Of a DNA stretch of 64,000 nt, positions 14,764-64,000 are shown in pieces. Position numbers and translations under genes: made by a program. Origin of the DNA: a virus. Position 1 is the stretch's first letter. Each line of letters starts with the position of its first letter. Below the pieces are notes generated by a model, which saw only the letters and a list, made by a program, of their open reading frames with translations, was not told the origin of the DNA and did not search any database. The DNA lies in IMG/VR virus record IMGVR_UViG_3300025141_015556. One strand, 5' to 3'.

Positions 14764-15269
14764 AATTCACATGCGGCGCGCGCCACTATAAGGCTGTCCG
14801 CACGATCATAATAGCCGGGTCGAGGATTCCCACTTCTTGTATATTCTACCTTAAAATTGGGTTCCGTGTCAAGTAAAAACTGAAATACTTTCTGTTTTGC
14901 TTTTTCGCCGCGGCGTACGCTTATGCCGCATGTTTTTCTTGCAGATGGCGCAGCAATGTAGTTTGGCTCCATCCCATAAAAACTATACATCAACCATGAG
15001 ACTACGCCATTAAAGCGCGCCAATGTGGAGAGAGTATGAGCAGAAGAAAATCCAGAACGAAACGATTGTAACGATTGTTCAATCCAAATTTCCTGCACCA
15101 CGGTCTGCGTAAATCTTCTATCTTCGAAGTATTTTTTTACAACTTCTATCTTTTTGAAAAAACTTTTATGTTTACGCGTATCTATATGATCGCATACTAA
15201 AATTTCACCATGTTTATTAACTATACTTACACCAGTAATACTTGTACTTACATCTAATCCTAAAAACAT
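14736..15269 (-). CDS. RuvC-like Holliday junction resolvase
   Basis: RNase H-fold catalytic pattern LGLDVSTSITG, WIEQ and DRADS. Confidence 0.8.
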   Translation of the reverse strand: MFLGLDVSTSITGVSIVNKHGEILVCDHIDTRKHKSFFKKIEVVKKYFEDRRFTQTVVQEIWIEQSLQSFRSGFSSAHTLSTLARFNGVVSWLMYSFYGMEPNYIAAPSARKTCGISVRRGEKAKQKVFQFLLDTEPNFKVEYTRSGNPRPGYYDRADSLIVARAACELWKKKSLKS

Positions 15270-16794: not shown

Positions 16795-17958
16795 TTAATA
16801 ATCCAACCTAACCCTCAAAGTAAATTCAGTGCTCGGGGTCTTCTTGAGGACCTCTCCGTTCTTGAATTCAACAACCATCTGATTATATTCATTAAAAAGG
16901 CCTCCGCCACAAATATAAGAAATCGGCTCATCTTCTGGGTTTTGTTTAACTCTAATGTGACTTCCACCGCCGGCCGATGTGCTCACATATGTTGGATTAG
17001 AAGAATAATTAAATTCTCCATTGTGAACTCGTAAGAAATAAATTGTGGAATTTAATTCCGTTGTATTGTTAAATTGAACATTAGCAATTCTATTTCTCAA
17101 TGAGTCTGCATTCCCTGATATAGAGGCGCTAATAAAAGATGCGCTCACTGATGAAGTCGTATATGTGGTTGTGCTATTCGGTCCAATATAGTTGTCGAGA
17201 TCGACCTCATATCTGCCGGTGGGCCCGGCGCCAGAAGGAAAAGGAAGGTGGAATATGGATGCGCTAATAACGGCAATTCCTGCTTGATAATATAAAAGCC
17301 CATATGGGATCCCGGTACCAGCAGAACTACTATGTAAAAGGGTATACTCCCCGGCTGGCGAGTTCGTCAAATAAGTAGTTGAGCTGCCATCATAAAGAGT
17401 CAAGAAACCATTTCTGCCGCCGCCGGATTCGCCGAGGCCGGATGAAAGTTGTAGACAGGTGCCACCAGTAATAAAAGTAATTTGGAAGGTGCCTTTCTTA
17501 ATCTCATCCTTTGTTAGCAGGCGCGCAAAATTGATGAAATAAACCTCATTTAATTTCCTCCCGCCGGATGCGAGATCCCCATCTTCATCAAAGCGTCGTA
17601 TGGCGCCATTTTCATCATGACCAACCAATATCTGTGCCATCTCGTTATATGTATTAATTTTCTTGGCCTGAACGTTTCTGTATATTCCCGAGGCGCCGAC
17701 GGTGCCAGAAAGGCCAGATCCGGTCGAATACCCCATTGTGATATCAAGAATATGATTCGCCGAAGAACTTAAATAAGGATAGTCGTAAACAGATTGAAAA
17801 ATACCGTGTGAAAAATTCTTAATATTAAAGGAGGTGCCATCTTGGCGATCATACGTTCCAGATAAAATTGTACCGGTAAGTGGAATCGCTTCATGTAACA
17901 TAGACCTTGTGCTTACTATGTCGTCGGGATTAACTGTTTTAAATGTTGAAATTGGCAT
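16795..17958 (-). CDS. Virion structural protein; paralog of 15269..16786
   Basis: Motifs IKKGT, GLLYYQAG, EFNYSSNPTY and C-terminal GLFNEYNQ...RVRLDY. Confidence 0.6.
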   Translation of the reverse strand: MPISTFKTVNPDDIVSTRSMLHEAIPLTGTILSGTYDRQDGTSFNIKNFSHGIFQSVYDYPYLSSSANHILDITMGYSTGSGLSGTVGASGIYRNVQAKKINTYNEMAQILVGHDENGAIRRFDEDGDLASGGRKLNEVYFINFARLLTKDEIKKGTFQITFITGGTCLQLSSGLGESGGGRNGFLTLYDGSSTTYLTNSPAGEYTLLHSSSAGTGIPYGLLYYQAGIAVISASIFHLPFPSGAGPTGRYEVDLDNYIGPNSTTTYTTSSVSASFISASISGNADSLRNRIANVQFNNTTELNSTIYFLRVHNGEFNYSSNPTYVSTSAGGGSHIRVKQNPEDEPISYICGGGLFNEYNQMVVEFKNGEVLKKTPSTEFTLRVRLDY

Positions 17959-18891: not shown

Positions 18892-18909
18892 ATTTTTTTC
18901 CTCTATATA

Positions 18910-18916
18910 TAAATAG
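18910..18916 (-). promoter_or_regulatory. Candidate late promoter CTATTTA
   Basis: 19 nt upstream of ATG 18891, in the context TTACTATTTATA. Confidence 0.6.
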
Positions 18917-41136: not shown

Positions 41137-41157
41137 GTGTCTTTTCCTTGTTTAAAA

Positions 41158-41164
41158 TAAATAG
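41158..41164 (-). promoter_or_regulatory. Candidate late promoter CTATTTA
   Basis: 22 nt upstream of ATG 41136. Confidence 0.6.
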
Positions 41165-49775: not shown

Positions 49776-50071
49776 TATTCCTCTTCCTTGTTTAACATAT
49801 CATAGAGCTCTTCTTTGTCAGAATCGCTCAAGGAGGTACTGCCGATTTGCTGTTTTTGAAGCAAGGAAGTTATTTTAACCATTTGTTCATTTGATCTTTG
49901 CAGATTTTCTATGTACTTGGCCGCAACAGAACCCAACTCCCTGCGCGCAGAGTCAGTTTGTTTCATGTCGTTCATAGCGTCCATAAGAAGTGTTTTTGCA
50001 AGAGCCCGATCTTCTCTTATGTTACGGGTTGCCTCTTCTATATAGCTGTCTAAATTTCGCCCTTTTCCCAT
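49775..50071 (-). CDS. Small helical protein; possible terminase small subunit
   Basis: Helical-hairpin pattern loosely like gp16-type TerS. The assignment is weak. Confidence 0.3.
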   Translation of the reverse strand: MGKGRNLDSYIEEATRNIREDRALAKTLLMDAMNDMKQTDSARRELGSVAAKYIENLQRSNEQMVKITSLLQKQQIGSTSLSDSDKEELYDMLNKEEE

Positions 50072-50748
50072 CTTTCTTTAAAAGCCTTATATTTTTTACG
50101 AAGTTTGTTCAAATTATTAACTACCTGTTTAGTGTTAAGCCCGGTGAGTTCTCGTAAGTATAAATAAATAGCTTTCTTGTTAAAAATTTCTATATCCTCG
50201 GAACTTTCGAACAATATTTTAACTGCTTCTAAAACTTTTCGTTCGTTCTCTTTTATCATATCGTCGGACCAAGTTTTTACTTCTTCATAAAAATTATCCC
50301 AAAATTCTTTTTCTTCGCGGAGACGGTCATATTGTTTTTCTTGGGAGATTAGCCTCTCCTCCAAAGGATTGAGCATGTCCTCAAAATATATTTCTTTTTG
50401 GTTTCGCCGGGCATTTCTTTTAACTTTATGAATAAACCAATTTTTTGTTACAACAGAAAAATATGAAAATGCCTTAGACCCCTTGCTTGGATCATATTTA
50501 TTTAAAATAGTGGTTAGCCATATCTTGCAATCATCACGCAAAGAATCTATATTTGGCAAAGAGGTAAATCGATAAGTGAAAATTATCTTATTCACCATTT
50601 CATCAAGAGCCGGCTGAATGAGATCTTTATACAGTACGCCGCGGCGGTCTCGGTCTGCTGTGTTGGAATATTCTATGATCGCTTCTTCATGAACCTTCGT
50701 AAAATAATAATTCTTATTCCGCTTCTTCTTTTTGGTACTCCGTGGCAT
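50050..50748 (-). CDS. Late-transcription sigma factor (T4 gp55-like)
   Basis: Sigma region-2-like segment DDCKIWL...KYDPSKGSKAFSYFSVVTKNWFIHKVKR. Confidence 0.7.
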   Translation of the reverse strand: MPRSTKKKKRNKNYYFTKVHEEAIIEYSNTADRDRRGVLYKDLIQPALDEMVNKIIFTYRFTSLPNIDSLRDDCKIWLTTILNKYDPSKGSKAFSYFSVVTKNWFIHKVKRNARRNQKEIYFEDMLNPLEERLISQEKQYDRLREEKEFWDNFYEEVKTWSDDMIKENERKVLEAVKILFESSEDIEIFNKKAIYLYLRELTGLNTKQVVNNLNKLRKKYKAFKERWEKGEI

Positions 50749-51049
50749 CTTCCTCCTCTGCTAGCATTACTTCGGTTGTGAGACTATATATTTCTTCAAA
50801 TTTTTCCAACTCTTCTCTCACGATTTTTGTTCTTTCAATGAGTCCTTCAATTACCGGCTCACCATGATACATTTCCATTTGAAACAAATTATCAACATAC
50901 TCTTCAAAGGAGCTAAAAATGATATATAAATCGCCTAAATTATCGGATGTATAAAGCAGCTTTGATAAAATCTTTAAGATATACCATACAAAAACTATAT
51001 TGAGTGCCACCGAGATTGCTAAAATTATTGGGATGTATAAGCCGCTCAT
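50714..51049 (-). CDS. Hypothetical membrane-anchored protein
   Basis: N-terminal TM followed by an acidic helical region. Confidence 0.55.
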   Translation of the reverse strand: MSGLYIPIILAISVALNIVFVWYILKILSKLLYTSDNLGDLYIIFSSFEEYVDNLFQMEMYHGEPVIEGLIERTKIVREELEKFEEIYSLTTEVMLAEEEDATEYQKEEAE

Positions 51050-51300
51050 TGTCTTTTTTTCTCAAGCACTTCTTTTTGTTTTTGAAGATCTTTTCGAGCC
51101 TCTTTTATAAATTCTTCAGTCGCTTGGCCTATCTTCCCGTATTTTTTTTCTTTTTTTAGATTCAAATTGATTTTAGGTATTAACTTAATTAATGATTTTT
51201 TAGCACCACACTCCGTGCAATCTTCCCACGTTTCAATATGCGGGTGCACGACTGTGCACTCATTTTTACATGAGTCACATCTATAAGAATACCTAGGCAT
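51046..51300 (-). CDS. FmdB-family zinc-ribbon protein
   Basis: MPRYSYRCDSC...CTECG. Confidence 0.75.
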   Translation of the reverse strand: MPRYSYRCDSCKNECTVVHPHIETWEDCTECGAKKSLIKLIPKINLNLKKEKKYGKIGQATEEFIKEARKDLQKQKEVLEKKRQ

Positions 51301-51302
51301 TA

Positions 51303-51539
51303 TTAGTTCATGTCTTTATCCGACAAGGTCGCGGTGGCGAACTCTTCAACATTCTTCACCTCAACGCCCTCTAAACTAACCACCGGAGGATTGGTTACCA
51401 CCAGCGTACTGTGGCTAGAATCTGCCGGATCGAATTGGAAATTCATTTCCCCCAAAAGGGGCACAATGTCTGTTTCTTCCATTAAACACTTTTGTAACGC
51501 CATCATTAAGGCTCCCATGGCTTGATTTCCTAATTTCAT
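51303..51539 (-). CDS. Hypothetical protein
   Basis: 78 aa with an AAGGAG SD. Confidence 0.6.
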   Translation of the reverse strand: MKLGNQAMGALMMALQKCLMEETDIVPLLGEMNFQFDPADSSHSTLVVTNPPVVSLEGVEVKNVEEFATATLSDKDMN

Positions 51540-51701
51540 TTACTTACTTCTCCTTTCGAGTTCTCGTAGCCGCCGATCAATGTCTTTTAAGTGCTTTTCC
51601 AATTCGCGAGCTTGAGTACGAATGGCCGTCTCGACCATGGTCTCTGCGAGATCTTTTACGCGCTGTTCCGACAGCGTTACTGCCTTTTTAGCTGTTTTCA
51701 T
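51540..51701 (-). CDS. 53-aa coiled-coil protein (not in the ORF track)
   Basis: [57 protein letters not shown] overlap upstream, and its TAA directly abuts the next ATG. Confidence 0.7.
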   Translation of the reverse strand: MKTAKKAVTLSEQRVKDLAETMVETAIRTQARELEKHLKDIDRRLRELERRSK

Positions 51702-52015
51702 TTGATATTTTCCTTCCTTTCTTTAAAATATTCTATAGAATTTATTGATTTATCATCAATATATAGATCATAGTGAGGTTTCCCAAGTTTTAAATCGTGA
51801 TGTTTGGCTCCCCACTCTTCTAGCTGATTTTTTGTTAATTCTGTCCAATCAATTTTAGTTTTACTTCCGCGCGCCGTCCAATATACAATTGTATTGCCCT
51901 CATCATAAAGTTTATTTACTTTTACTATATTTTCTTGAATAGGAACGGCCTTTGGATATTCGCGTTCGTTTTCATAAAAACATATTGTTTCGTCTATATC
52001 AACATAAATTATCAC
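51698..52015 (-). CDS. HAD-superfamily phosphatase (capsule-biosynthesis phosphatase-like)
   Basis: Motifs [13 protein letters not shown] and [11 protein letters not shown]. Confidence 0.8.
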
Positions 52016-52404
52016 TTATAATTCTCCAAAATATTAGTAGTTGAGTAATTTTTCATTCTATCAAAAAATAATATTTTTTTTGCATATTCCGCGCCAACTA
52101 TTTTTTTTTCTTCCCAATCTGATCCGACTACCATTATATCAGGATTAATTTCTTTTATACAGTCCTCTAATTCCACCGGTGAGTCGAATATTCTTACCTC
52201 ATCAATATGTTGTAGACACTCTAATAAAAATTTTCGATCCTCTTGGGTGTTAACTGGTCGCTTGGAGCCCTTATCTTTTTTAACTTTTTTATCAGAATCG
52301 ATCCCCACTATTAATTTATCACCCATAGACCTTGCAAATTTAAACAATTCGGCGTGACCTCGATGAAGCACATCAAAACATCCGTTAGTCCAGACTACTT
52401 TCAT
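52012..52404 (-). CDS. Cytidylyltransferase-family sugar-1-phosphate nucleotidyltransferase (HldE C-terminal/RfaE2-like)
   Basis: Motifs [27 protein letters not shown] and YSTT. Confidence 0.85.
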
Positions 52405-53144
52405 TTTAAAATGCTAACGCCCCTTCTTTGGACTACCAACGTGGCCGATTCATTGGCGAATTTGATTGATTCCTGCATGGAGCCGGTTTCAATATATTTA
52501 ACCACCAAAGAGGCAACAAACGTATCGCCGGCGCCAGATAAATCTTTTATTTGAACTTCGGGGACCGCGTAAATAACATTATTGTGGCGAGCGCCGCGAG
52601 GGCCCAGCGTAACGATTAATTTTTCCTCAAGGACGTCGGTTAAGCGATCTTCAGAACGCCTATATTCTGCTTGATTGATTTTAATATAAGAGGTTTTCTC
52701 AGCCCAGGCGCCCAAAGTTTTTTTTGTGTCCAGAAAAACCACATTATGGTTGGAAGAAATATATTCTATGTGTTCTTCCAATAAAAATCCTTTATTGTAG
52801 TCTGATATAACCACGCCATCGTAATTTGTAAATCTAATTTTTTTAAGTTTTTCAAATGCGATGGGCTCATACAAATCATCATTCTTATCCAGACGCATTA
52901 ACATATGATTGGTTTTATAATCTATAAATCTAGTTTTTGTTATGTCTTTCCAATTTTTGTTTGTACAAAGATCCGCTTCTGCCCCAAAACTTGCAATGTT
53001 TTTTTGAACATTCAGCGCCATGCCGCCATTTTCAACCGTCTTAAAGGGATTAAAAATTGGGGCCGGCGCAGTTGGTTCTAGACGATCACAATTACCATAG
53101 ACAAAAATGTCTCTGCAACTGTCGCCTATCACCAAGATTTTCAT
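52401..53144 (-). CDS. PfkB-family sugar-phosphate kinase (HldE N-terminal/RfaE1-like)
   Basis: Motifs LVIGD...D.FVYG.C.RL.P.APAP, ISDYNKG and DLSGAGDTF. Confidence 0.85.
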
Positions 53145-53145
53145 G

Positions 53146-54381
53146 TCAGCCTCTCACAACGTCACAGATGAAGCTTATCTCATGTGGGAGTAGTTCGGGG
53201 TAGTTTGGCAAAAAGAACCCCGTAGAATGGATCCTGTCGCTCATAGGGGCCTCAAATTCACCATATAGGTCAGCCCAGAACGGATGGCGGCCGAGATTCC
53301 CAGCGCTAAAGATTCTCGTCTCAATCCCATTCTCAATCAATCTTTTAACAATTTCTTTTCTGTGTTCTGTGCTTTTAGCTAGCGCGCCAAACGAAATGGA
53401 AACTGGATTATTGTCGCCCCAATCCTGAAATTCTACACACCCCTCTAGTTCCGCTGCATATTGTAGATGATTTCGATTCCTTTTTTTGGCAACCCATTCG
53501 GCACGTTCAATTTGCTTTATGCCCAAAAACGCTTGTAAATCGGTTGATCTTAAATTAAATCCGGGCACAAAAAAGGTAAAGGGCTTATGAAAATCGTCTA
53601 CTTGATATTCCTCGATCATTGCTTCATAAACGCCAGAATCAAGGTCTTTACCCCATCCATGGCTCCGCAACATTAATAAAATCTGTTGAAGTTCCATATC
53701 ATTTGTATTAACCATTCCCCCTTCAATCGTAGATAATTGATGTCCAAAATAAAAAGAAAACGAAGACATGTCGCCAACTGTTCCAACTTTGGCTCCGTCA
53801 GCATAAGATGCGCCCAATGCTGCGCAAGCATCTTCCATTAAAAAGAAGCCATATTTTTCTTTAAGCTGTAGAATCCTCTCTCTATGGTGCGGAACACCAA
53901 GAACCTGAACAAAAATAACTGCGTCGGGATTCTCCTTTTTACAAATCTTCTCCAGCTCGTCTAGGTCAATTCCATAGGTTTTTTTGTCTGCTTCAACCAT
54001 TATCGGTTCTAAACCAAATTGAATAGCGGGAGCAATGGTGGTCACCCAGCCCACAGATGGAACGACTATTTTTTTGTTTTCTATTTTACCGGCCATCATC
54101 GCGGCATAGATCATCAACAGATTGGCGGAAGAACCAGAATTATTAAAAACAGCAAATCTAGTTCCAATAAACTCGGCCCACTTTTTTTCTATCCCTGGCG
54201 TTAAATTGCCCTTTGTAAGCCTAGGATACGACTTAAGCCAATTACAAAGATCATCAATATCCTTTTCGTTGATGGTTTCTTTGGCTAATGGATATTTAAT
54301 TTCAGGCGCCTTGTTTGGATCGGCCGCAGGATCATACTCTTTAACACCATGTTTGCCCAATTCAATATATTTAACACTCAT
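53146..54381 (-). CDS. PLP-dependent DegT/DnrJ family enzyme, His-type NDP-4-keto-6-deoxy-sugar 3-dehydratase (ColD/RfbH-like)
   Basis: Motifs NSGSSANLL, EDACAALG and SFSFYFGHQLSTIEGG, with His in place of the Schiff-base Lys. Start placed at MSVKY. Confidence 0.8.
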   Translation of the reverse strand: MSVKYIELGKHGVKEYDPAADPNKAPEIKYPLAKETINEKDIDDLCNWLKSYPRLTKGNLTPGIEKKWAEFIGTRFAVFNNSGSSANLLMIYAAMMAGKIENKKIVVPSVGWVTTIAPAIQFGLEPIMVEADKKTYGIDLDELEKICKKENPDAVIFVQVLGVPHHRERILQLKEKYGFFLMEDACAALGASYADGAKVGTVGDMSSFSFYFGHQLSTIEGGMVNTNDMELQQILLMLRSHGWGKDLDSGVYEAMIEEYQVDDFHKPFTFFVPGFNLRSTDLQAFLGIKQIERAEWVAKKRNRNHLQYAAELEGCVEFQDWGDNNPVSISFGALAKSTEHRKEIVKRLIENGIETRIFSAGNLGRHPFWADLYGEFEAPMSDRIHSTGFFLPNYPELLPHEISFICDVVRG

Positions 54382-55382
54382 TCTTTTCTCCCAAATTGGC
54401 ATTGACACCATGGTGCACGGGCCGCACCATCTATTGCGCCCGCAATCGCGTCGACCTGTTCGAAGGCAAATGTTTCATTTCCATATAGATCTCCCCAGTC
54501 TCCGACATATTCATCTGCATCCTCTATTATTTCTTCATAATTTAGATCATCCACCCAATCGCCTACCTGTAATTTGTAGGAACCGCCGCGAACGCGCTTG
54601 TTGGGGAAGTATTCAACCCACTTCATAATAGTGTCTATAAATTCGGGAGGAGCTTTGAATTGCAATTCATATAATTCTTGCTTTACCACGTGAACATCAG
54701 AAAAAGAATACTTCTTACTAAAAAATGATATCATTTTTTTACCGACCAGATCTTTTAAAAATTTTTCGGGGTCGGCGGAGATCTTTTCTTTTATCATATC
54801 GTTGTGGTAGACGCGCTGTTCTAAAAACTCTTTTAAAATTTCTGGTTTCTTTTCAACATACTTTATGATAAATTCAAGAACGGCGCTATAAACACCGGGC
54901 CAATGACCCCCGTGTAAATTAAATTCATCTCCGGTGATATATCCTCCCTTTTTCACTTTCGGAAGCCAATGCGCCAAATCGGCTTTTGCATCTTTATATT
55001 CGTATGAAGCGTCGAAATGGATCCAATCAAAATAATGATTTTCAAACTTTTTTGACGCTTCTACGGAATAATCTTGAATCAACGTAACGCCACCCTTATC
55101 AGAAAAATAATCAAACGTCACTTCTTTATGTTTCTTGGTGTCCCATCTTTTGTTACTCCATTCACACATATCCCATGGGTCAATCAAATAAAGTTCTTTA
55201 GGAGCGCATAACTCATAGATAGCGGCTGCATTATCACCTCTATCTACTCCTATTTCTGCTACTATAGCATTTGAAGGCAAAGTTTCATATAGAGCCTCCC
55301 TTGAAGAGGATGCCTCTTTATATGGAACTCCTCCATCTGTCAACATTTTTATATATTCTGCTTTGGTTGGGCCTATACTCAT
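54378..55382 (-). CDS. Class I SAM-dependent methyltransferase (Methyltransf_24-like)
   Basis: Motifs AEIGVDRG, YLIDPW, FDWIHFDA and KVKKGGYITGD. Confidence 0.8.
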   Translation of the reverse strand: MSIGPTKAEYIKMLTDGGVPYKEASSSREALYETLPSNAIVAEIGVDRGDNAAAIYELCAPKELYLIDPWDMCEWSNKRWDTKKHKEVTFDYFSDKGGVTLIQDYSVEASKKFENHYFDWIHFDASYEYKDAKADLAHWLPKVKKGGYITGDEFNLHGGHWPGVYSAVLEFIIKYVEKKPEILKEFLEQRVYHNDMIKEKISADPEKFLKDLVGKKMISFFSKKYSFSDVHVVKQELYELQFKAPPEFIDTIMKWVEYFPNKRVRGGSYKLQVGDWVDDLNYEEIIEDADEYVGDWGDLYGNETFAFEQVDAIAGAIDGAARAPWCQCQFGRKE

Positions 55383-55395
55383 AATTTATTTTCTC

Positions 55396-55926
55396 CTATA
55401 GACAAATCCCCGAAAAAAACACGCCATTCTTGTCTCTTTCAGAAAGAATTGGGTTTGTAATTGCCCAATCAATATTCAATGTTGGATCGTCCCAAGCTAT
55501 TGTAACCTGTTCTTCTGGCCCCTTATAGTGTTCAGACCATTTATAATAAAAAACACATTTATCAGATAAACACAAATGTGCATTAACACAACCGGCTGGC
55601 ACTATTACCACCATCGGTTCATTATCAGAAATTAAATATGTTTCTACATTCCCATAGGTTCTTGAATCCTTACGGGTATCAACTATTGCCAATTGAAATT
55701 GGCCACTTAGGCACGTTATAAGCTTTGCTGTATGGGGGTCGCCATGAAAACCCCTAAGTACTCCAAATCTAGAAATAGTTATTTTATCGGCGACAAAATT
55801 TAAATCTGTATAATCGTCGGTATACACAGTCCAAATTTCTCCTCGATAATCTTTAAATGTATCGAGAGTAATGCTCTTCAGGCCATCAATTTTTGTTGAT
55901 TCAGTTACTGTCTTTATTATCTTCAT
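55396..55926 (-). CDS. rmlC: dTDP-4-dehydrorhamnose 3,5-epimerase family protein
   Basis: Motifs FKDYRG, GVLRGFHG, AIVD.R.DS.TYG, WDDP.LNIDW and PILSERD. Confidence 0.8.
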   Translation of the reverse strand: MKIIKTVTESTKIDGLKSITLDTFKDYRGEIWTVYTDDYTDLNFVADKITISRFGVLRGFHGDPHTAKLITCLSGQFQLAIVDTRKDSRTYGNVETYLISDNEPMVVIVPAGCVNAHLCLSDKCVFYYKWSEHYKGPEEQVTIAWDDPTLNIDWAITNPILSERDKNGVFFSGICL

Positions 55927-56863
55927 ATAACACTTGTATCTTGTCGTATATGTCTTCGACGCTCAGCCCGTTGGTGTCAAGCAGGTGATCACGAGTGCCG
56001 TTTTCAAAAATATATCTTTCCGGCAGGCCAATTCTCAATACGCGTTTTTGTGAATTTAGGTCTGCCATAGTTTCACAAATCGCTGAGCCAAACCCACCAA
56101 ACAAATTCTGTTCCTCGATGGTTACAACAGTGTCTTTATCACTCAACGCCGCTTCAAGTGCTTCGGTGTTAATGGGCTTAATCTTAAACAGATCGACCAC
56201 AGAAACATGTTTCCCTTCTGCAGTTAGTCGATTCGCAACATCTAGAGCGCGCCCCAGCATGTAGCCACTAGAAAGAATGCAAATTTTTGGGCCAGTGCCG
56301 GATCCATGTTTTATGGTCGTTAGGCCGCGGCTAAGAATATCTTCATTTACATCGAGCATGTGAAGCATTTGCGGATATGATCTTTCTAGCCTGATATATC
56401 TAAACCTTATAGGGTGTCGGCATGTTATTTCCACCAGCGCCTCCGCGGTAGCAGAGTTACACGGAGAATATATCTCAATATCACAGAGCGATCTCATGTA
56501 GGCTATATCTTCTGTGGGGCAGTGTGCTGGGCCGGCCGGAGTGTACCCCAGCGCTATGCCGTTTCCGAGTACCGTAATGGGATTGTTTGCCATCGCGCAG
56601 GAGTATCGAAGCTGCTCGAAACACCGAGCGGACCACGCCGCCATGTAATAAATGTAAACTTTTTTCCCAGTTGCTGACAAACCGGCGGCAAAATTTATCG
56701 CGTTCTGCTCTGATATGCCAGCTGCAAAGAACTGCTGTGGAAGTTCTTGGCGCCATCGATCCAATGAAGGGGCGCCCATATCAACAGATATTAAAATTAT
56801 ACTTTTATCTTTTTTCGCCTTTTCAAACAGAGCAGAAATAAAGGCGTCTCTCTGAGCTTTCAA
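55901..56863 (-). CDS. Transketolase C-terminal (pyrimidine-binding) subunit
   Basis: Motifs RDAF, GISEQNA, G.AH..TEDIA and TIEEQ...GGFGS. TTG start at 56863 with a GGAGG SD. Confidence 0.85.
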   Translation of the reverse strand: MKAQRDAFISALFEKAKKDKSIILISVDMGAPSLDRWRQELPQQFFAAGISEQNAINFAAGLSATGKKVYIYYMAAWSARCFEQLRYSCAMANNPITVLGNGIALGYTPAGPAHCPTEDIAYMRSLCDIEIYSPCNSATAEALVEITCRHPIRFRYIRLERSYPQMLHMLDVNEDILSRGLTTIKHGSGTGPKICILSSGYMLGRALDVANRLTAEGKHVSVVDLFKIKPINTEALEAALSDKDTVVTIEEQNLFGGFGSAICETMADLNSQKRVLRIGLPERYIFENGTRDHLLDTNGLSVEDIYDKIQVLYEDNKDSN

Positions 56864-57621
56864 CTTAATTCCTCCAGACCTATTCTTATTAACTCTTCTT
56901 CTTTGGGAATAATTGTATGATATTGCCAAACGTCTTCCATATAACTAACCCCTTTGCCTTTGATAGTGTTGGCTATAACCACCTGGGGGGTTGTGGCCTC
57001 TTTTGAAAAAACACTTCTTAGGTCGTCAAAGTTATGGCCATCGATTGTTACCGCGTCGAATCCAAAACTCTTAAACTTCTCTTCCAGCGGCTCTAATTTT
57101 AATAACTCTTCCGTCTTTCCTAAAATTCCCATCTTATTTCGATCAACAATTACGCGCAAATTGTTTATATTGTGATGAGCGATAAACATCAGGCTCTCCC
57201 AGATCGATCCTTCGTATAGTTCAGCATCTCCAACAACCACATAAACGTTTTTGCCGCTGCCATATGCCACGCCGGTTCCATAACCAAGACCATTCCCTAG
57301 CGAGCCGCCAACAAAATGACACCCTGGAATGGTGGAATCGGAATGCAAACGCAGTATTCCTTCGGGTGTGCAATATTTTTCTAGTTCTTCGGCACTATAA
57401 TACCCCAAGTCGGCTAAAATAGGGTATAAAGTGGGAGACCCGTGTCCCTTGCTGAACAACAAAATGTCCTTTTTGTGGTCAAACAAGGTATTTTCATCAA
57501 AATATAACGAAATTAATATGTCCACACTGGACAAACAGCTCGCCAAATGGCCCGCTTTTGCCCTTGTTTTGAACTCAAAAATCCTTTTTCTAACCGATTT
57601 TGCGGCTTTTTCCAAATCCAT
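56860..57621 (-). CDS. Transketolase N-terminal (TPP-binding) subunit
   Basis: Motifs GHLASCLS, SKGH, GSLGNG, GDAELYEGSIWE and TIKGKG. Confidence 0.9.
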   Translation of the reverse strand: MDLEKAAKSVRKRIFEFKTRAKAGHLASCLSSVDILISLYFDENTLFDHKKDILLFSKGHGSPTLYPILADLGYYSAEELEKYCTPEGILRLHSDSTIPGCHFVGGSLGNGLGYGTGVAYGSGKNVYVVVGDAELYEGSIWESLMFIAHHNINNLRVIVDRNKMGILGKTEELLKLEPLEEKFKSFGFDAVTIDGHNFDDLRSVFSKEATTPQVVIANTIKGKGVSYMEDVWQYHTIIPKEEELIRIGLEELS

Positions 57622-57627
57622 CGTTGT

Positions 57628-59178
57628 TTAATCCCCCAAAATTTGCCTTTTAAGGCGTATTTTTGTCATTTCTTCAATATTGCTACGAGCAACAGTACCA
57701 TACTTATTTTCAATTTTTTCCAAAAAGGGTGGATAAGAATGATACGTTATAAATGCCTCATCTCTAAACTTTAAAATTTCTTCTGGAGAAAGACTAAATG
57801 TTGGAAGCGGCTTTGTGTTGTAAGAATGAAAAGAGTAACCGGCATAATCATCTGGTAGCTCCACTCCGGACGTCCTGGCATCTTTGTATAATTGACTTCC
57901 CGGAAGTGCCATGGCGGCATACATATTCCATGCCAACGTGTTCAATTCCAGGCTTAAGTCTAGTGTCTTCTGCATTGTTTCGGGGGTGTCGCCCGGTAGG
58001 CCAACCAAATAATTAGCAATAATTTCAATATCGGAATCGTGAACCTTTTTAACCACATCTTGGATGTCTACATCTTGGAATTTGCCCTTGGTGACCTCTA
58101 GACGAACTTTGCGGTCTGCGGATTCAATACCCAAACAAAGCCACTTAATTCCCGCTTCTCTAACTAGCTTTAGGTTCTCGGGATCACGGATGGTGTCAAT
58201 TCGAGAATACGCCCACATGCTTAATTTCTCACCATAGCCGCGCTCCTTCAAAAGTTTACAGAGCGGAATATAATATCTCTTATTTAACAGGAACATTTCA
58301 TCGCTAATTCTTAATGTTTCAACCCCCATATCGACAAGCTTATCAAATTCTTTGATTATAAACTCCGGAGACCAAAATCTCATTTTAGAATAATTTGACG
58401 CAACCCCAATAGGATCATTATCGCTTCTATTAATAATGTTAATCATACAAAAACTACAATTGAACTGACAGCCCAGAGAGGTATAAATGGCAGCAAATGG
58501 AGTTCTTCTTTCGTGTTGATACTCCGCATGCCAAAAATGAGCACGATACAAATCCAAGGGCTCTTTATCATACGGTAAAAGATCCCAAGCATAGCCGGGA
58601 AGGTCTTCGTCCATCCTGTCTTGTGGAACAATCACTTCTGGGTCTGTCAAAAACGCTTTCCCGTTTTTTCTAAAGCCAATACCCTTAATGTGCGCAAGCT
58701 GGTCAAGGTTGCTTAAATCAAAATTTTGCGATAACAGGTTTCGAAGCGCATAAACACCCTCATTTGTAAAAGCAATGTCTATGGAATCCTCTGTATCGAG
58801 CACCTCATAGGGGAGTGCTTGAACGTGCGAACCTAGCAGCCCAATAGGAACGTCAACACCCGACTCTTTAAGAGCCGTCGCAGCTTTAATTGTACCACTC
58901 ATATTAACAGTCCCAGAATTAGGATTCTGCCCATAAACCACAAAACAAACCAATCGAGGGTTAAGTTCTCTTATCCGATTGACAACTTGTTGGCTTGTTA
59001 TCCTTTCTGCCAGCATGTCTAATATAGCCACGCTATATCCAACCGACCGGCACGATTCTGCCAACAGCAGCGACCACGTTGGCGTTTCAACCGCCGAATA
59101 ATCATCTGCCAACCCCTGGTATATTTCTTTAGAATTACCAGGATTGACAAACACAACATCTAATTTCTTCATTTTCAC
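57628..59178 (-). CDS. Cobalamin-dependent (class B) radical SAM protein
   Basis: N-terminal B12-binding domain (GSHVQALP), CxxxCxxC motif GCQFNCSFC, GIES and GLPGDT. Confidence 0.88.
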   Translation of the reverse strand: MKMKKLDVVFVNPGNSKEIYQGLADDYSAVETPTWSLLLAESCRSVGYSVAILDMLAERITSQQVVNRIRELNPRLVCFVVYGQNPNSGTVNMSGTIKAATALKESGVDVPIGLLGSHVQALPYEVLDTEDSIDIAFTNEGVYALRNLLSQNFDLSNLDQLAHIKGIGFRKNGKAFLTDPEVIVPQDRMDEDLPGYAWDLLPYDKEPLDLYRAHFWHAEYQHERRTPFAAIYTSLGCQFNCSFCMINIINRSDNDPIGVASNYSKMRFWSPEFIIKEFDKLVDMGVETLRISDEMFLLNKRYYIPLCKLLKERGYGEKLSMWAYSRIDTIRDPENLKLVREAGIKWLCLGIESADRKVRLEVTKGKFQDVDIQDVVKKVHDSDIEIIANYLVGLPGDTPETMQKTLDLSLELNTLAWNMYAAMALPGSQLYKDARTSGVELPDDYAGYSFHSYNTKPLPTFSLSPEEILKFRDEAFITYHSYPPFLEKIENKYGTVARSNIEEMTKIRLKRQILGD

Positions 59179-59181
59179 CTC

Positions 59182-60111
59182 TCAATAATTAGCATACCAC
59201 GGAGCTTTAATTATATCATATGCCTTAACCAATTGTTGAATTCCCAAATCTAAATCGTTTTCACACTTAAACCCCATAGAATAGAATTTTTCACTACTCA
59301 CAATGTAATCGCGTTTATCTAAGTCCTCTGTGAACTCTGCCCTTATAATCTCCAAAGGAATATGTTTTTGGATTGTCTCCGCTAGCTGCAGCTTGTTCAT
59401 ATTCAATGAATCGTTACCTACATTATAAGTTTCATTCTTACACTTCTCCCAGTTGTCAATCACAAATCTGAACGATCGACATATATCATGTAGGTGTACA
59501 TAGTTTCTCATAAATTCACATTCGTAAAGCACCAGCACCTTTTCATCAAGTGCCTTCAAAACAAAGTTGTTCACCAACAAATCGGTTCTCATCCTAGAAG
59601 AGGGCCCAAACACCGTGGCCAACCTAAACGTAATATGGTTTTCAACATTTCTATACTCTTGCTCTCCCGCAACTTTAGTTTTACCATAAAGAGAGATAGG
59701 ATTTAAGGGGGACTCTTCCGTGCAAAAACTGCCCCTTTCCCCGACACCGTAGCCGGAATTTGTACAGGGGTAGATAACCATTTGATCTTTTGATTTATTT
59801 TTCGCTATCCGTGCATTAACTTCATGATTGATCTCTTTTGCCTCTTCCGGATTATCACGGCAAAGCGGAAAGCCGACCAGCGCCGCTAGCGGTATTATAA
59901 TATCAGCATCGGCGAGACAAGAATTTAATAGTTTGCGATTCCTTACGTCCCCTTTTATAAATTTAAATTTTGGGTGCGAAATGTATCTCAACAAAGACGT
60001 CGTATCATACATTAATGTATCTAAACAACTGACCTCATGACCATCCCTAAGTAGATAATCCGTTAATTCGCTCCCAATGTAGCCGGCGCCACCTGTAATC
60101 AAAACCCTCAT
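59182..60111 (-). CDS. NAD-dependent nucleotide-sugar epimerase/dehydratase
   Basis: Motifs TGGAGYIG, YGKTK and RLATVFG. Confidence 0.9.
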   Translation of the reverse strand: MRVLITGGAGYIGSELTDYLLRDGHEVSCLDTLMYDTTSLLRYISHPKFKFIKGDVRNRKLLNSCLADADIIIPLAALVGFPLCRDNPEEAKEINHEVNARIAKNKSKDQMVIYPCTNSGYGVGERGSFCTEESPLNPISLYGKTKVAGEQEYRNVENHITFRLATVFGPSSRMRTDLLVNNFVLKALDEKVLVLYECEFMRNYVHLHDICRSFRFVIDNWEKCKNETYNVGNDSLNMNKLQLAETIQKHIPLEIIRAEFTEDLDKRDYIVSSEKFYSMGFKCENDLDLGIQQLVKAYDIIKAPWYANY

Positions 60112-60112
60112 T

Positions 60113-60412
60113 TTACCACTCTATCTTCCCCGTTAATATGTCTTTTAACATAACCCAGTCACAAACCTTGGCCCACAACGGCTTTGACCAAGCCGCGGGC
60201 GTACTCTTCTCAAAAAACAAGTGGCCAGCCCAAGCAAAAGGATAAACCACAAACGGTGCCGCTAAAAGCAGAAGCCATTTTTGTGCTACAATTGCATATA
60301 CTAGTGTGAGCACAGTTGCCAGTTGCCCCAACACGTGTAATCTACGATTATTCCTATTCGTATGCAAAAGAAGATAATATTCGTAATATCTCCAAAATTC
60401 TAATTTATCCAT
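60113..60412 (-). CDS. DUF962 (Mpo1-like) membrane protein
   Basis: YL..H....NRRLHVLG...YPFAWAGHLFFEK..PA. Confidence 0.75.
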   Translation of the reverse strand: MDKLEFWRYYEYYLLLHTNRNNRRLHVLGQLATVLTLVYAIVAQKWLLLLAAPFVVYPFAWAGHLFFEKSTPAAWSKPLWAKVCDWVMLKDILTGKIEW

Positions 60413-60809
60413 CCCAGCTTATCTCCCAGTCTTTAAACTCCGCTGCCAAACAATCAATTTTATAATCTTTTCTACCGCCGGCAACTTCTTGAATTTTGTT
60501 TTTTGCTGTGTTTCTAATTCCATTAAGGCCGTGAGTAAGTTCAAGATTATTACCATCCTTAATGCCTTTTCGATAGTTTGATTCGTTATGCCAAATATGC
60601 AAATTCATTTGTGACAATACAACAACCGATCTAATCAATTTGGCATCAACCGAACCACAGTCCGGGAGCAATAAGTCTATATCATGACAAATATCATTTA
60701 TTTCCTGCGCATACTGCTCCTTGTTCTCGGACAAAAACACTTCCTTAAGCTGCACAATAGACAATCTATCTATCAACTCAGACAACGTGGGCAAATATTT
60801 CCTACTCAT
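60405..60809 (-). CDS. DUF4254-like helical protein
   Basis: LSELIDRLSIVQLKE...N..IWH.E...N..RN..K..I. Confidence 0.55.
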   Translation of the reverse strand: MSRKYLPTLSELIDRLSIVQLKEVFLSENKEQYAQEINDICHDIDLLLPDCGSVDAKLIRSVVVLSQMNLHIWHNESNYRKGIKDGNNLELTHGLNGIRNTAKNKIQEVAGGRKDYKIDCLAAEFKDWEISWDG

Positions 60810-61719
60810 TCTTTTCCACCGCTATCGCCTGCACAATACCATCAGCCAAACGATCATCAACATTGGTATACTTTTTGGCAATTTCATAATTCTCTTCCAC
60901 ATATTCTAACATCTCACGATATTTTTTTTCAGTTAAGCTGTCGAGAATCTCAAACAGCTCGGGGCCGGTCTTAAAACTTAAAATTCCACGAGCATTAAAG
61001 TAATCTCCTATATTTTCACATCCCCAAAATATAGGAATTGTCCCGCATCGAAACGTATCAACAAGCGTCTCAGTAAAATAATTATCATGCTTTGCGTTCA
61101 TAACGGTAATACTAAAACAATAATCACTTAATGGAGTTCTCTTATCATCAAACGGCTTGTAGGCCGAACCCCATAAATCTACTTCAATCTTGCCCTGAAT
61201 CGACTCAGCAATAATATGCCTGAGCTTGTGGCCGCGGCACCAACTTTTATCTGATATAATGTGAGACACTAGCTTCGTTTTGTCGTATACTTTTGCGTTC
61301 TCGTCTTCAATCCAGGTGGTGCCGACTCCTTCAATCTTTATATACTTATCGCCGCGGTTCAACAATTCCTTGTCGTGGGTAAATATAAAGTCAAACTTGT
61401 TTTCAACCTGTCCGATCCACTCATATGCAAACGGGTGAACAGTTCGGCATTCGTTCACAAAAGCAATTTTATATTTGCTTTTTACACTATCAACGTATGG
61501 AGAAAAAAAGTCCTTGTCTGTAAAGACCGTTGCCAAGGTTTCCTCCTCTGGGGGTTGCGCGGGTGAGACCGCACAATCTTGAATGCCCCCTAAATACTGC
61601 CACTGAACCTTTTTCGGCGTACAGGCGGCGCCAGTTAGGCTCCAAAGATCGTTCTTATAGCATTTGGTGGTCATCAAGCTATCGTATAAATTAATTTTCA
61701 TTTTATCTTCTTGCGTCAT
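60802..61719 (-). CDS. Glycosyltransferase, GT10 (fucosyltransferase)-like
   Basis: K...L.DY.FSI..MN....NYFTE...D.F..GTIPIFWG. Confidence 0.65.
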   Translation of the reverse strand: MTQEDKMKINLYDSLMTTKCYKNDLWSLTGAACTPKKVQWQYLGGIQDCAVSPAQPPEEETLATVFTDKDFFSPYVDSVKSKYKIAFVNECRTVHPFAYEWIGQVENKFDFIFTHDKELLNRGDKYIKIEGVGTTWIEDENAKVYDKTKLVSHIISDKSWCRGHKLRHIIAESIQGKIEVDLWGSAYKPFDDKRTPLSDYCFSITVMNAKHDNYFTETLVDTFRCGTIPIFWGCENIGDYFNARGILSFKTGPELFEILDSLTEKKYREMLEYVEENYEIAKKYTNVDDRLADGIVQAIAVEKNE

Positions 61720-62699
61720 TATCCGCTCGTCTCCTCATAATCGAGTAAGTATTTGTTGAAAAGATCAGAATTTTTATTTTTCAACACGCCGTCCACTTGC
61801 ATTAAAAACTCTTTAGTGCACTCTTCTGAGTGTTTAACCTTGCGGCCATAGCTGCATGCTATGTGGCCCTGTGCTTTATACCTGTTTATAGACGCGTCCT
61901 TGTGATATTCTATATCATCAACAATTTTATCCAAATTATCTCTAAAGCGGCTTGTTTGTACAGAAGATGCCAACGCGTTCTCCCCCATAAAATTAATCAC
62001 CCTATTTAATTCAGGAAAAGGATCCCGAATAAAATCTTCATATTTGATCAATAGGGCCTTGTTTGAATTTGTTTTAGAAACTTTATCGTGATATTCCAAA
62101 AGTTCATAATATCGTTTCAATTGATAACTAAAATGAAAATGATGAAGAAAAGTGCCAGAAAGAATCGCTTCTAGGCCGGGCCCTTTTTTCTCTGTGGGGT
62201 TCTCTTCTATGGTTGGATAGCCAGTTAATAAAAAATCTTTTAAGCGCTGTTCTGCTTTCAGTTCAGTATACAATTTCTGAAATTGGGGATTCGATACCCA
62301 AGCCGGCCCTTTCGTCAATGACGCCGAATTACTGAGCCGTTCGCCAGATTCTGTCACCAACGCGGGCCTCTCGTCAGCGGGGAAAAATTTTTCCAGATAT
62401 TCCCAAAGGCGCCAAACTATCGCCGATGGCTCTTTTATATAAGTATTCTTTAGCTCGCTAAAGATAGCTTCTTTATAATTTCTTAACAATAAAATACTCT
62501 TCACATCAAAATTGTTTTCAAGGGTCCAAAGGTCGTTATCATAATTGTGAGAGTGGTACAAAGGATATTCCGCTTCTATGTCTGTTTCAGCAATAAACGC
62601 AAAACAATAACGAAACCAGTTAGACCCAGAACGAGGATAAGATAAACAATACATCACATCTTGACTCGGGTGGTCAATTACTTTTACTTTTTTATTCAT
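61719..62699 (-). CDS. Sulfotransferase-family protein
   Basis: 5'-PSB loop SYPRSGSNWFR, 3'-PB motif LLLRNYKEAIFS, and IKYEDF..DP. Confidence 0.7.
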   Translation of the reverse strand: MNKKVKVIDHPSQDVMYCLSYPRSGSNWFRYCFAFIAETDIEAEYPLYHSHNYDNDLWTLENNFDVKSILLLRNYKEAIFSELKNTYIKEPSAIVWRLWEYLEKFFPADERPALVTESGERLSNSASLTKGPAWVSNPQFQKLYTELKAEQRLKDFLLTGYPTIEENPTEKKGPGLEAILSGTFLHHFHFSYQLKRYYELLEYHDKVSKTNSNKALLIKYEDFIRDPFPELNRVINFMGENALASSVQTSRFRDNLDKIVDDIEYHKDASINRYKAQGHIACSYGRKVKHSEECTKEFLMQVDGVLKNKNSDLFNKYLLDYEETSG

Positions 62700-63043
62700 T
62701 AGTCGCCCTTTTTAATACGATAGCTGTCTTCATCAAAATGCTGTGTTGAAAATTCAAATAACTCTGTGTCCTGTAGGGCATACATCTGATGTCTAAGACC
62801 TCGATAAACATGGAAAGTGTCACCAGGATCTAATATTTTTTCCTTGGCGCCATTAAGATCGTCTCGATCCGAATATTTGACTAATAATTTGCCAGATTGT
62901 ACATAAAACACCTCGTCCTTGAGCTTATGATAGTGCCACGAACATCGTTTACCTTTCACAAAATATAGCAATTTACCACAATATTCTTCGCAGTTAACAA
63001 TCCATTTTTCAAATCCCCACCCCTTGGAGACAAAATTTACCAT
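62699..63043 (-). CDS. Cupin (mannose-6-phosphate isomerase/lyxose isomerase-like)
   Basis: Motifs KGWG.E.W, CSWHYH..KDE.F and H....H. Confidence 0.8.
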   Translation of the reverse strand: MVNFVSKGWGFEKWIVNCEEYCGKLLYFVKGKRCSWHYHKLKDEVFYVQSGKLLVKYSDRDDLNGAKEKILDPGDTFHVYRGLRHQMYALQDTELFEFSTQHFDEDSYRIKKGD

Positions 63044-63852
63044 ACTGACTTTCCTCCGTCGATAACGAGGTTTTCTCCAGTCATGTACGTGCTGGCATCA
63101 GAGCATAAAAATACAATCGCTCCCTTATATTCATCAATATCTGCCATTCTACCCATTGGGATTATGTTAGAAAGCTTTTTAACAAACTCTTCAGGATGAT
63201 TATTATATACTCCCGTGGGGCTTAGACTGTTTACTCGAATATTTTTCTGAGCGAAATATACAGCAAGATATTTTGTCATTCCAATAATTGCCCATTTGGC
63301 TGCGGAATATGTAATAGGCTTTACATTCTGTTCTTCCTCGGATAGTCCCTCTTTCCTGTAAAGTCTTTGATCGGGAGCAATAACCCCCAAATCTGATGAT
63401 ATGTTTAATATGACACCTCCTCCGTTTTCTAGCATTTTGTTAGAAACTGCTTGAGAGCAAAAAAATGTACCATTCATAGCAGCGTCGACACCCTGAAACC
63501 AGTACGCTGGGGTCATAGTCTCAAACCGACTGTCGGGAGTTAGGCCTGCTTCTTTCTTTACTTTTGGATCCTTTGCGGCATTGTTAATTAATATATCAAT
63601 TTTATCACAAAGTTCCACCACTGCTTTAACCGATCGAGGATCTGTTACGTCCATATGATAAGCAGCTGCTGATCCTTCGCCATATTTATCATTCAATTGT
63701 CGAGCCTTTTCTTCAGCCCGATCTAGATGATGATCTGTTAAGATTACGGTTCCCCCGTACTCGACAATTGCCTCTGCATGTTTAGGGCCGAGCAAACCGC
63801 CAGCACCAGTAATTAATGCCACTTTGCCGGTTAAATCAAATAGGTTTTTCAT
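63037..63852 (-). CDS. Short-chain dehydrogenase/reductase
   Basis: Motifs TGAGGLLG, NNAA and YSAAK. True start MKNLF (63852) follows a GGAGG SD. Confidence 0.9.
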   Translation of the reverse strand: MKNLFDLTGKVALITGAGGLLGPKHAEAIVEYGGTVILTDHHLDRAEEKARQLNDKYGEGSAAAYHMDVTDPRSVKAVVELCDKIDILINNAAKDPKVKKEAGLTPDSRFETMTPAYWFQGVDAAMNGTFFCSQAVSNKMLENGGGVILNISSDLGVIAPDQRLYRKEGLSEEEQNVKPITYSAAKWAIIGMTKYLAVYFAQKNIRVNSLSPTGVYNNHPEEFVKKLSNIIPMGRMADIDEYKGAIVFLCSDASTYMTGENLVIDGGKSVW

Positions 63853-64000
63853 TGTATAAAGCCTCCATAATTCGTTTATGTTCCTTAATTGTTGTTGTCT
63901 CATTACCGAACTCGCCCCTGGCAGTTTGTAATGTGTATAGCCCATTATACCTGTTTTTTTTCAAAAAGTGAAATATTTGTTTGAAGTTTGTGTCGCCCGT
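63836..64000 (-). CDS. C-terminal fragment of a sugar-phosphate isomerase/epimerase (xylose isomerase-like TIM barrel); 5' end lies outside the window
   Basis: Frame reads TGDTNFKQIFHFLKKNRYNGLYTLQTARG...EKPI*. Confidence 0.55.
   Translation of the reverse strand, partial: TGDTNFKQIFHFLKKNRYNGLYTLQTARGEFGNETTTIKEHKRIMEALYNEKPI

Follow-up and report, generated by a model that had tools for sequence, protein, structure and literature searches.

Why a phage should carry a long run of sugar genes beside its baseplate genes is the question raised by the IMG/VR virus record IMGVR_UViG_3300025141_015556, of which a stretch of 64,000 nucleotides (the window) was analysed. The source is an uncultured marine phage whose T4-like nature is confirmed by the portal, terminase and primase genes found elsewhere in the window. 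At 51698-63945 on the minus strand lie 16 open reading frames (ORFs), separated by gaps of at most 13 nucleotides or overlapping their neighbours and all read from a single strand, in agreement with a preliminary description that had counted about 16 packed and co-oriented sugar genes. Matches to Pfam and NCBIfam place their products in sugar activation, oxidation, deoxygenation, epimerisation, C-C bond formation, methylation, sulfation and transfer, and the families behind the methylation and sulfation steps named in that description are indeed present. Our best explanation, to which we give about an even chance, is that a phage-borne glycan island of about 20 kb has its downstream 12 kb in the window, that the island makes a modified heptose glycan, and that the acceptor is most likely the phage's own distal tail or baseplate proteins.

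The island is common to more than 100 related viral and metagenome-assembled genome (MAG) contigs, and in about 90 IMG/VR contigs it sits between a PD-(D/E)XK nuclease gene and the gp55-like sigma and baseplate genes. The junction at which the sugar genes give way to the sigma and spike genes is kept in a contig 96% identical to the window (L001) and in two others at 70-76% (L002, L003). A search with the nucleoside diphosphate (NDP)-sugar short-chain dehydrogenase/reductase (SDR) as query gave 74 IMG/VR loci at 64-76% identity (L005-L078), whose ORFs were clustered de novo; a profile of the glycosyltransferase family 10 (GT10)-like protein gave 31 further loci, of which about 17 belong to this clade. 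By their frequency among the 74 loci (Table 1), seven genes form a clade-wide core: those for the HldA-like kinase, the HldC-like nucleotidyltransferase, the mini-HAD phosphatase, the small cupin, the Cj1427-like C4-dehydrogenase (the NDP-sugar SDR), the Mpo1-like protein and a 134-residue protein, u134. In about 25 loci a compact core block leads directly into the sigma gene. The content outside the core swaps from phage to phage in the manner of an O-antigen locus. The genes for the B12 radical SAM enzyme, the ColD-like dehydratase, the RmlC-like epimerase and the transketolase are accessory (Table 1), about 17 related loci have the GT10-like gene, and relatives carry modules with aminotransferases, a 2-oxoglutarate oxygenase, a TylC3-type C-methyltransferase and further transferases. 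The sulfotransferase, which has no counterpart among the approximately 140 related viral and MAG or single-cell genome loci compared, is an accessory of this phage only. The island is specific to one phage clade, which answers the question of clade specificity put forward with the preliminary description.

Two relatives, L079 and L080, keep the gene order of the window at 50-85% identity and continue it upstream with genes for a TIM-barrel protein, a VOC protein, a methyltransferase, a class-III aminotransferase, a NeuA-like protein, NeuB and a Maf-like protein, and farther upstream with GT2, GT4 and GT4 transferase genes, the PD-(D/E)XK nuclease gene and PhoH. The whole island in a relative of this type spans about 20 kb and about 26 genes, five of them for transferases; judged from these relatives, the island runs past the window end and so beyond the interval 51698-64000 first assigned to it. 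At the other end, co-orientation with the late sigma and baseplate genes stands as first described and direct adjacency does not, three small ORFs lying between the island and the sigma gene. The gp55-like assignment of that gene is itself weak (Table 1), yet the gene is kept in 32 loci, and on its 3' side follow an M23 gp5-like gene, a spike-like gene and baseplate wedge genes.

A nucleotide-activated heptose that is 3-deoxy, branched or methylated is the most likely sugar, because the closest solved relatives of the island's enzymes are heptose enzymes of Campylobacter capsules. The core C4-dehydrogenase can be aligned from end to end, with only one gap of one residue (317 bits), to PDB entry 6vo6, which we take, from the depositor's molecule name, to be the GDP-heptose C4-dehydrogenase Cj1427; the GGAGYIGS and YxxxK motifs are kept. 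Consistently, the eight best PDB hits of the cupin epimerase form one group (Table 1), five of them named as GDP-heptose epimerases and the names in the group being mostly GDP-D-glycero-4-keto-D-lyxo-heptose 3- or 3,5-epimerases, and the classical dTDP-4-dehydrorhamnose 3,5-epimerases (RmlC) rank next at 1e-21. The DegT-fold protein, whose best PDB match is ColD, has a histidine at the position of ColD His188 in place of the Schiff-base lysine, and should therefore be a C3-dehydratase independent of an E3 reductase. In Campylobacter jejuni, Cj1427 and the C3-dehydratase of serotype HS:5 together produce a 3-deoxy-4-keto-heptose in vitro (PMC10680097).

For the activation steps, the rfaE domain I and domain II models are the top NCBIfam matches of the kinase and the nucleotidyltransferase, and the kinase matches a single PDB entry, that of the heptose 7-phosphate kinase HldA (4e84). 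The kinase begins at about residue 55 of HldA, and this shortened form (244-248 residues) is kept in 44 related loci. The HAD gene follows the nucleotidyltransferase gene in 38 loci, and the small cupin usually comes directly after these two. Neither the small cupin nor the methyltransferase gave an informative PDB sequence match; the cupin may be a sugar-phosphate aldose-ketose isomerase acting in the place of GmhA. The classical SDR is a candidate keto-reductase, either for a branch carbonyl or within the upstream nonulosonate module, and in relatives the cupin gene is followed by another, second epimerase/reductase gene. The glycan assembly line of the preliminary description is real and phage-borne, and is refined here to a probable Campylobacter-type heptose modification combined with branching or extension by a thiamine diphosphate (ThDP) enzyme, of which only the seven-gene core is conserved.

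The case for such branching comes from the slot after the B12 radical SAM gene, which in all 37 of the loci that have this gene is taken by a two-subunit ThDP enzyme. The slot holds a split transketolase in the window and a pyruvate dehydrogenase (PDH)-E1-like alpha/beta pair (E1_dh and Transket_pyr) in 22-28 relatives. The use of two unrelated ThDP families in one slot suggests a shared role, most likely the transfer of carbon onto a keto sugar, and the B12 radical SAM enzyme is probably a C-methyltransferase or a rearranging enzyme that acts on the sugar. The transketolase C-terminal subunit, as called from a TTG codon, overlaps the N-terminal subunit by 70 nucleotides, and its Pfam match begins at residue 26, thus its start probably lies downstream of the called TTG.

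Taken together, these enzymes could form the following pathway. A sugar phosphate, most likely heptose 7-phosphate derived from sedoheptulose 7-phosphate (perhaps by the cupin), would be phosphorylated at C1 by the HldA-like kinase; the mini-HAD phosphatase would remove the distal phosphate, and the HldC-like nucleotidyltransferase would yield the nucleotide sugar. The Cj1427-like enzyme would then oxidise C4, the ColD-type dehydratase would remove the 3-hydroxyl, and the heptose-type cupin epimerase would invert C3 and/or C5. The transketolase-like enzyme would either lengthen the keto sugar by a two-carbon unit or supply the C7 precursor. Methylation by the B12 radical SAM enzyme and the methyltransferase, and reduction of a keto group by an SDR, would complete the sugar, which the GT10-like enzyme would transfer and the sulfotransferase would decorate as part of the glycan. 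If the genes that close relatives have upstream (GT4, GT4, GT2, nonulosonate and Maf-like) are counted in, the product would be a short, strain-specific oligosaccharide made in the cytoplasm. Its attachment to the phage's own distal tail or baseplate proteins is the most likely last step and the least certain one.

Table 1. Features of the sugar island, its downstream boundary and other elements discussed in the text. Positions refer to the window unless a locus is named; the fourth column gives occurrence among the 74 clustered loci.
Feature	Position	Strand	Loci (of 74)	Evidence
Classical SDR (FabG/PtmA-like)	63037..63945	-		adh_short_C2 142.8 bits; L079/L080 have a 73% identical copy in this position
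Small metal-binding cupin	62699..63043	-	38	Cupin_2 35.3 bits; HxH...E...H motif
Sulfotransferase	61719..62699	-		Sulfotransfer_1 29.8 bits (cut-off 22); 3'-phosphoadenosine 5'-phosphosulfate (PAPS) motifs PRSGSNW and RN....S
GT10-like soluble GT-B glycosyltransferase, marine-phage family	60802..61719	-		Glyco_transf_10 40.5 bits (cut-off 23.9)
u134, 134-residue four-helix protein without family	60405..60809	-	68	About 80% identity
Mpo1-like/DUF962 protein, two membrane helices	60113..60412	-	48	Mpo1-like 97 bits, full profile length
Cj1427-like NDP-heptose C4-dehydrogenase (NDP-sugar SDR)	59182..60111	-	72	PDB 6vo6, E 1e-93
Cobalamin-dependent radical SAM enzyme (B12 radical SAM)	57628..59178	-	37	Radical_SAM 72.9 bits; B12-binding 38.8 bits
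Transketolase-like ThDP enzyme, N-terminal (diphosphate-binding) subunit	56860..57621	-	1-2 (transketolase)	Transketolase_N 58.7 bits; NF004559 193 bits
Transketolase-like ThDP enzyme, C-terminal (pyrimidine-binding) subunit	55901..56929	-	1-2 (transketolase)	Transket_pyr 74.2 bits; Transketolase_C 78.9 bits
RmlC-like cupin epimerase, heptose 3- or 3,5-epimerase type	55396..55926	-	12	Best PDB group E 8e-38 to 1e-35
S-adenosylmethionine-dependent methyltransferase (Methyltransf_24), extra 180-residue C-terminal part without assignment	54378..55382	-		50 bits
ColD-type pyridoxamine phosphate-dependent sugar C3-dehydratase	53146..54411	-	19	DegT fold 221.6 bits; ColD 2gms, E 5e-47
HldA/RfaE-domain-I-like sugar-phosphate kinase (PfkB)	52401..53144	-	44	TIGR02198 109 bits
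HldC/RfaE-domain-II-like nucleotidyltransferase	52012..52404	-	42	TIGR02199 125.9 bits; CTP_transf_like 70.4 bits
Minimal HAD phosphatase, 105 residues, putative GmhB role	51698..52015	-	38	DxDxT motif reads DIDET; TIGR01689 capsule phosphatase 23.9 bits
Downstream boundary: three small ORFs (one zinc ribbon) and gp55-like late sigma	50050..51539	-		PHROG 234, E 6e-4; syntenic in about 32 loci
PDH-E1-like pair, examples	L002:2036-3192; L013:12450-13600			In the slot after the B12 radical SAM gene; non-orthologous replacement
[ST][GAS]S excess	27523-36834	-		43 observed, 10.4 expected, z 10.3
[ST][GAS]S excess	36838-38904	-		z 6.7
[ST][GAS]S excess	15269-16786	-		z 6.2
[ST][GAS]S excess	16795-17958	-		z 3.4
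CTATTTAW	312-319; 18909-18916; 41157-41164; 50164-50171	-		Variant-late-promoter-like; shortly upstream of three structural operons and the gene after sigma

We favour virion proteins as the acceptor on circumstantial grounds, namely the lack of export and lipid-carrier genes, the Maf-like gene of close relatives and a sequence bias in four proteins. A hydropathy scan found no polytopic membrane protein among the clusters present in at least four of the 74 loci or among the window ORFs, and therefore no flippase, polymerase, ligase or transporter; the only membrane-embedded protein was the two-helix Mpo1-like one. An initiating phosphoglycosyl transferase was not found in the 74 loci either. 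The tripeptide [ST][GAS]S is over-represented 3-4 times in four window proteins only (z against shuffled sequences, Table 1), and not in the window proteins of 2089 and 1075 residues nor in any enzyme; it is this excess that points to virion proteins. Furthermore, the phage transferases adjoin the structural genes in the same orientation. In L079/L080, beyond the position of the window end, MptE-like (50 bits), NeuB (239 bits) and CTP_transf_3 (69 bits) matches were found, the first of these, the Maf-like one, being partial. Marine Flavobacteriales, the probable hosts (see below), are not known to be flagellated, so that a Maf-like enzyme would need an acceptor other than flagellin.

Several points weigh against this explanation. 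Where the acceptor is concerned, the [ST][GAS]S excess could stem from repeated structural domains, and the Maf-like gene, located beyond the window, gives a modest score and matches no PDB sequence. GT2, GT4 and GT10 enzymes normally use lipid-linked or lipopolysaccharide (LPS) acceptors. Such genes in marine myophages have been read as serving host O-chain modification (PMC7029224). As to expression timing, the T4 late-promoter consensus TATAAATA is not enriched, and the variant-like octamer CTATTTAW (Table 1) shows no overall enrichment and does not occur in the sugar island. Where the chemistry is concerned, the kinase, the nucleotidyltransferase and the HAD protein all score under their curated family cut-offs and the SIS-domain isomerase GmhA was not found in the island, which makes a hexose (mannose-type) substrate possible. 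An extended-SDR C4-reductase is absent from 51698-63945, only the classical SDR being present there, and the transketolase pair may merely raise the supply of sedoheptulose 7-phosphate. More generally, the clade has no cultured member, and u134 is unmatched among 50,697 GenBank phages.

The strongest competitor, which we consider unlikely though well worth weighing, is that the phage remodels the host surface: phage nucleotide sugars and soluble transferases would modify undecaprenyl-linked O-antigen or capsule units, or the LPS core, at the inner face of the membrane, and the host's flippase and ligase would export the product, which would block superinfection or keep progeny from sticking to debris. 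This would explain why the island has heptose pathways and the GT2, GT4 and GT10 families, all typical of the synthesis of LPS and capsules, and why its core includes a small conserved membrane protein (Mpo1-like), and it matches the published interpretation of pelagimyophage and cyanomyophage clusters given above. Also in its favour, three of five putative host genomes have an rfaE-domain-I-like kinase at 309-324 bits, just below the cut-off of 345. However, none of the initiating, flipping, polymerising, ligating or transporting functions was found in the 74 clustered loci, and close relatives carry a Maf-like protein-glycosylation gene. In addition, the phage looks lytic and T4-like, so the new surface would be needed within one latent period, and the hypervariability of the island would call for another explanation.

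The alternative that the same island works on a hexose is improbable in our view. Fructose 6-phosphate would be converted to mannose 6-phosphate by the cupin, then to the 1,6-bisphosphate, the 1-phosphate and NDP-mannose, the product being a 3-deoxy or branched hexose and the transketolase only an auxiliary of the pentose-phosphate pathway. The low scores of the three activation enzymes and the missing GmhA are what this substrate would predict, the motif of the small cupin is like that of metal-dependent sugar isomerases, and the substrate of ColD itself is a hexose. Against a hexose, the universal core enzyme is a Cj1427-type C4-dehydrogenase and not a 4,6-dehydratase, the cupin epimerase groups with heptose epimerases, and the PDH-E1-like pair that occupies the same slot in relatives is incapable of sedoheptulose phosphate synthesis.

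Hypermodification of DNA is a very remote prospect. Sugars placed on hydroxymethylated phage bases as a protection from restriction, as in T-even and arabinosyl-hydroxymethylcytosine phages, would suit a T4-like ancestry, soluble GT-B transferases and the lack of export genes; yet no gene of the thymidylate synthase family (dCMP/dUMP hydroxymethylase) was found in six related genomes, two of them rated 100% complete, which argues against DNA glycosylation, and at least five transferases, sulfation and a Maf-like gene are unlike known DNA glycosylation. Lastly, a mis-join of host DNA onto a phage contig, suggested by u134 homologues in bacterial chromosomes (see below) and by the membership of several relatives in MAG bins, is next to inconceivable: both junctions are syntenic in L001, L005 and L079/L080, in independent assemblies from different samples, the guanine-cytosine content is uniform across the region with no break at 51.5 kb, where the preliminary description had placed a possible mis-assembly, the genes share one coding strand, and bacterial u134 genes stand alone among housekeeping genes where the island is not found. 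The island is phage DNA.

The most conserved gene of the island, u134, bears on the probable host. Its product, with 61 invariant columns among its homologues, is modelled as a four-helix bundle (predicted local distance difference test score, pLDDT, of 77) with invariant His, Trp, Asn and Glu residues; the model had no significant fold match, and an Atlas search gave only viral clusters and a weak lead to DUF6165. Chromosomal homologues about 80% identical to u134 occur in MAGs and single-cell genomes of marine Flavobacteriales (L129, L136-L139, L152), where they are solitary among housekeeping genes, either M61 peptidase, Adk, Obg and MetK or ThrRS, IF3 and YqeY. The u134 tree mixes phage and Flavobacteriales sequences and is too short to tell the direction of transfer between phages and Bacteroidota. 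These homologues and the mixed tree suggest that the hosts of the phages are probably Flavobacteriales. Separately, a 130-kb contig of a Prochlorococcus single-cell genome (L124), phage-like and with its genes on one strand, carries a less closely related form of the island (u134, kinase, SDR, RmlC-like and B12 radical SAM genes), and the island type may thus extend to phages of other hosts. Megablast searches of the 50,697 GenBank phages, with the island and with the structural region as queries, gave no match, and a close homologue of the C4-dehydrogenase is likewise absent from the GenBank phages.

The Mpo1-like protein has two hydrophobic segments and belongs to a 2-hydroxy-acid dioxygenase family, and its gene nearly always adjoins that of the Cj1427-like C4-dehydrogenase. 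Cj1427 recycles its bound NADH with 2-oxoglutarate, which releases L-2-hydroxyglutarate (PMC10680097). By analogy, and speculatively, the Mpo1-like protein may clear the L-2-hydroxyglutarate formed as a by-product of the phage dehydrogenase.

The GT10-like protein is modelled with high confidence (pLDDT 94.9) as a GT-B fold whose best Foldseek matches are the Helicobacter pylori alpha1,3-fucosyltransferase (2nzx), FUT9 and FUT11. When it is aligned to the H. pylori enzyme, the donor motif FEN...Y.TEK reads VMN...YFTET, with the Glu of FEN and the Lys of TEK replaced, so that a donor other than GDP-fucose is conceivable. Metagenomes hold 196 unnamed homologues, and family members at 31-37% identity are found in the cultured cyanomyophages S-T4, S-SM2 and S-SSM7. 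A 320-residue transferase at a similar position in other relatives was considered as kin of the GT10-like protein and rejected, profile comparison showing the two to be unrelated.

A broader proposal, which we put forward tentatively and would not count on, is that this clade, probably infecting Flavobacteriales, has a "serotype locus" of its own, in which a heptose-activating core and freely swapped tailoring modules build, in the cytoplasm, a strain-specific glycan coat for the phage's own tail proteins. The modules in question are the two unrelated ThDP families, the B12 radical SAM enzyme, C-methyltransferases, nonulosonate synthesis with the Maf-like gene, and sulfation. If the glycan is on virions, abundant ocean phages would have variable sugar coats made wholly by phage enzymes, which would matter for the recognition of hosts, for adhesion to marine particles and for grazing and decay, and many "LPS", "transketolase" and "radical SAM" genes listed as auxiliary metabolic genes in viromes would be glycan genes and not genes of host metabolism. 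The island also offers a wealth of enzymes for rare sugars, among them heptose C4-dehydrogenases and 3-dehydratases, ThDP carboligases of two kinds and B12 radical SAM enzymes, and it ties a strongly conserved marine Flavobacteriales protein of unknown function, u134, to phages.

In the literature we found no paper on the island of this clade, and a Far-T4 paper makes no mention of sugar genes. Comparison with known systems nevertheless places its parts. The closest chemical parallel is with the capsular heptose pathways of C. jejuni (PMC10680097), which share a Cj1427-like C4-dehydrogenase, a ColD-type dehydratase with the active-site histidine and a heptose-type cupin epimerase, brought together here in one operon. 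The phage activation enzymes are of the HldA/HldC-like (ADP-beta-heptose) type, whereas Campylobacter supplies GDP-alpha-heptose with GmhA, HddA, GmhB and HddC, and neither this set nor a GHMP kinase was found in the island; the phage island lacks GmhA, an extended-SDR C4-reductase within the window and capsule export genes, and adds the ThDP enzyme, the B12 radical SAM enzyme, the methyltransferase and the sulfotransferase. For the branching step the parallel is yersiniose and other acyl-branched sugars, where YerE adds a carbon branch to CDP-4-keto-3,6-dideoxyglucose and YerF then reduces it (PMC9306805). Both pathways have a 3-dehydratase leading to a 4-keto-3-deoxy nucleotide sugar, a ThDP enzyme available for the branch and a reductase after it; the phage ThDP enzyme is of two subunits and transketolase/DXS-like (PDH-E1-like in relatives), in contrast to the single-chain YerE, and its substrate is likely a heptose instead of the CDP-hexose of YerE.

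Among phages, the "LPS" clusters that marine T4-like cyanomyophages and pelagimyophages carry in their hypervariable regions (PMC7029224) are alike in belonging to T4-like marine myoviruses and in placing rfaE-like, epimerase and glycosyltransferase genes close to those for the tail and baseplate, and the GT10-like family is common to this island and to cyanomyophages S-T4, S-SM2 and S-SSM7. The present clade is another lineage, its nearest cultured portal proteins being those of Microcystis phage Mel-JY01 (44%), Flavobacterium phage immuto (36%) and RM378 (34%), and its island differs in having a fixed genomic position, a defined conserved core and a much longer tailoring pathway. The Maf-dependent nonulosonate islands that serve flagellin resemble the region directly upstream in L079/L080, with its Maf-like, NeuB, NeuA-like, aminotransferase and methyltransferase genes; the phage Maf part, in contrast, lies beyond the window, comes without a flagellin gene and matches only partially. 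It would also act in probable hosts, marine Flavobacteriales, that are not known to be flagellated. The proposed acceptor has its precedent in mycobacteriophages, whose virions are reported to be glycosylated by phage-encoded glycosyltransferases, with the glycans seen by mass spectrometry (Freeman et al. 2023, cited in PMC12619734). Soluble phage transferases encoded next to the structural genes and a virion protein as acceptor, proposed in our case, would be common to both, while the mycobacteriophages use host nucleotide sugars and two transferases, and the phage studied here also encodes what would be the whole precursor pathway. Marine T4-like phages with sugar clusters and mycobacteriophages with glycosylated virions are thus already known, and in their company this island is unusually elaborate.

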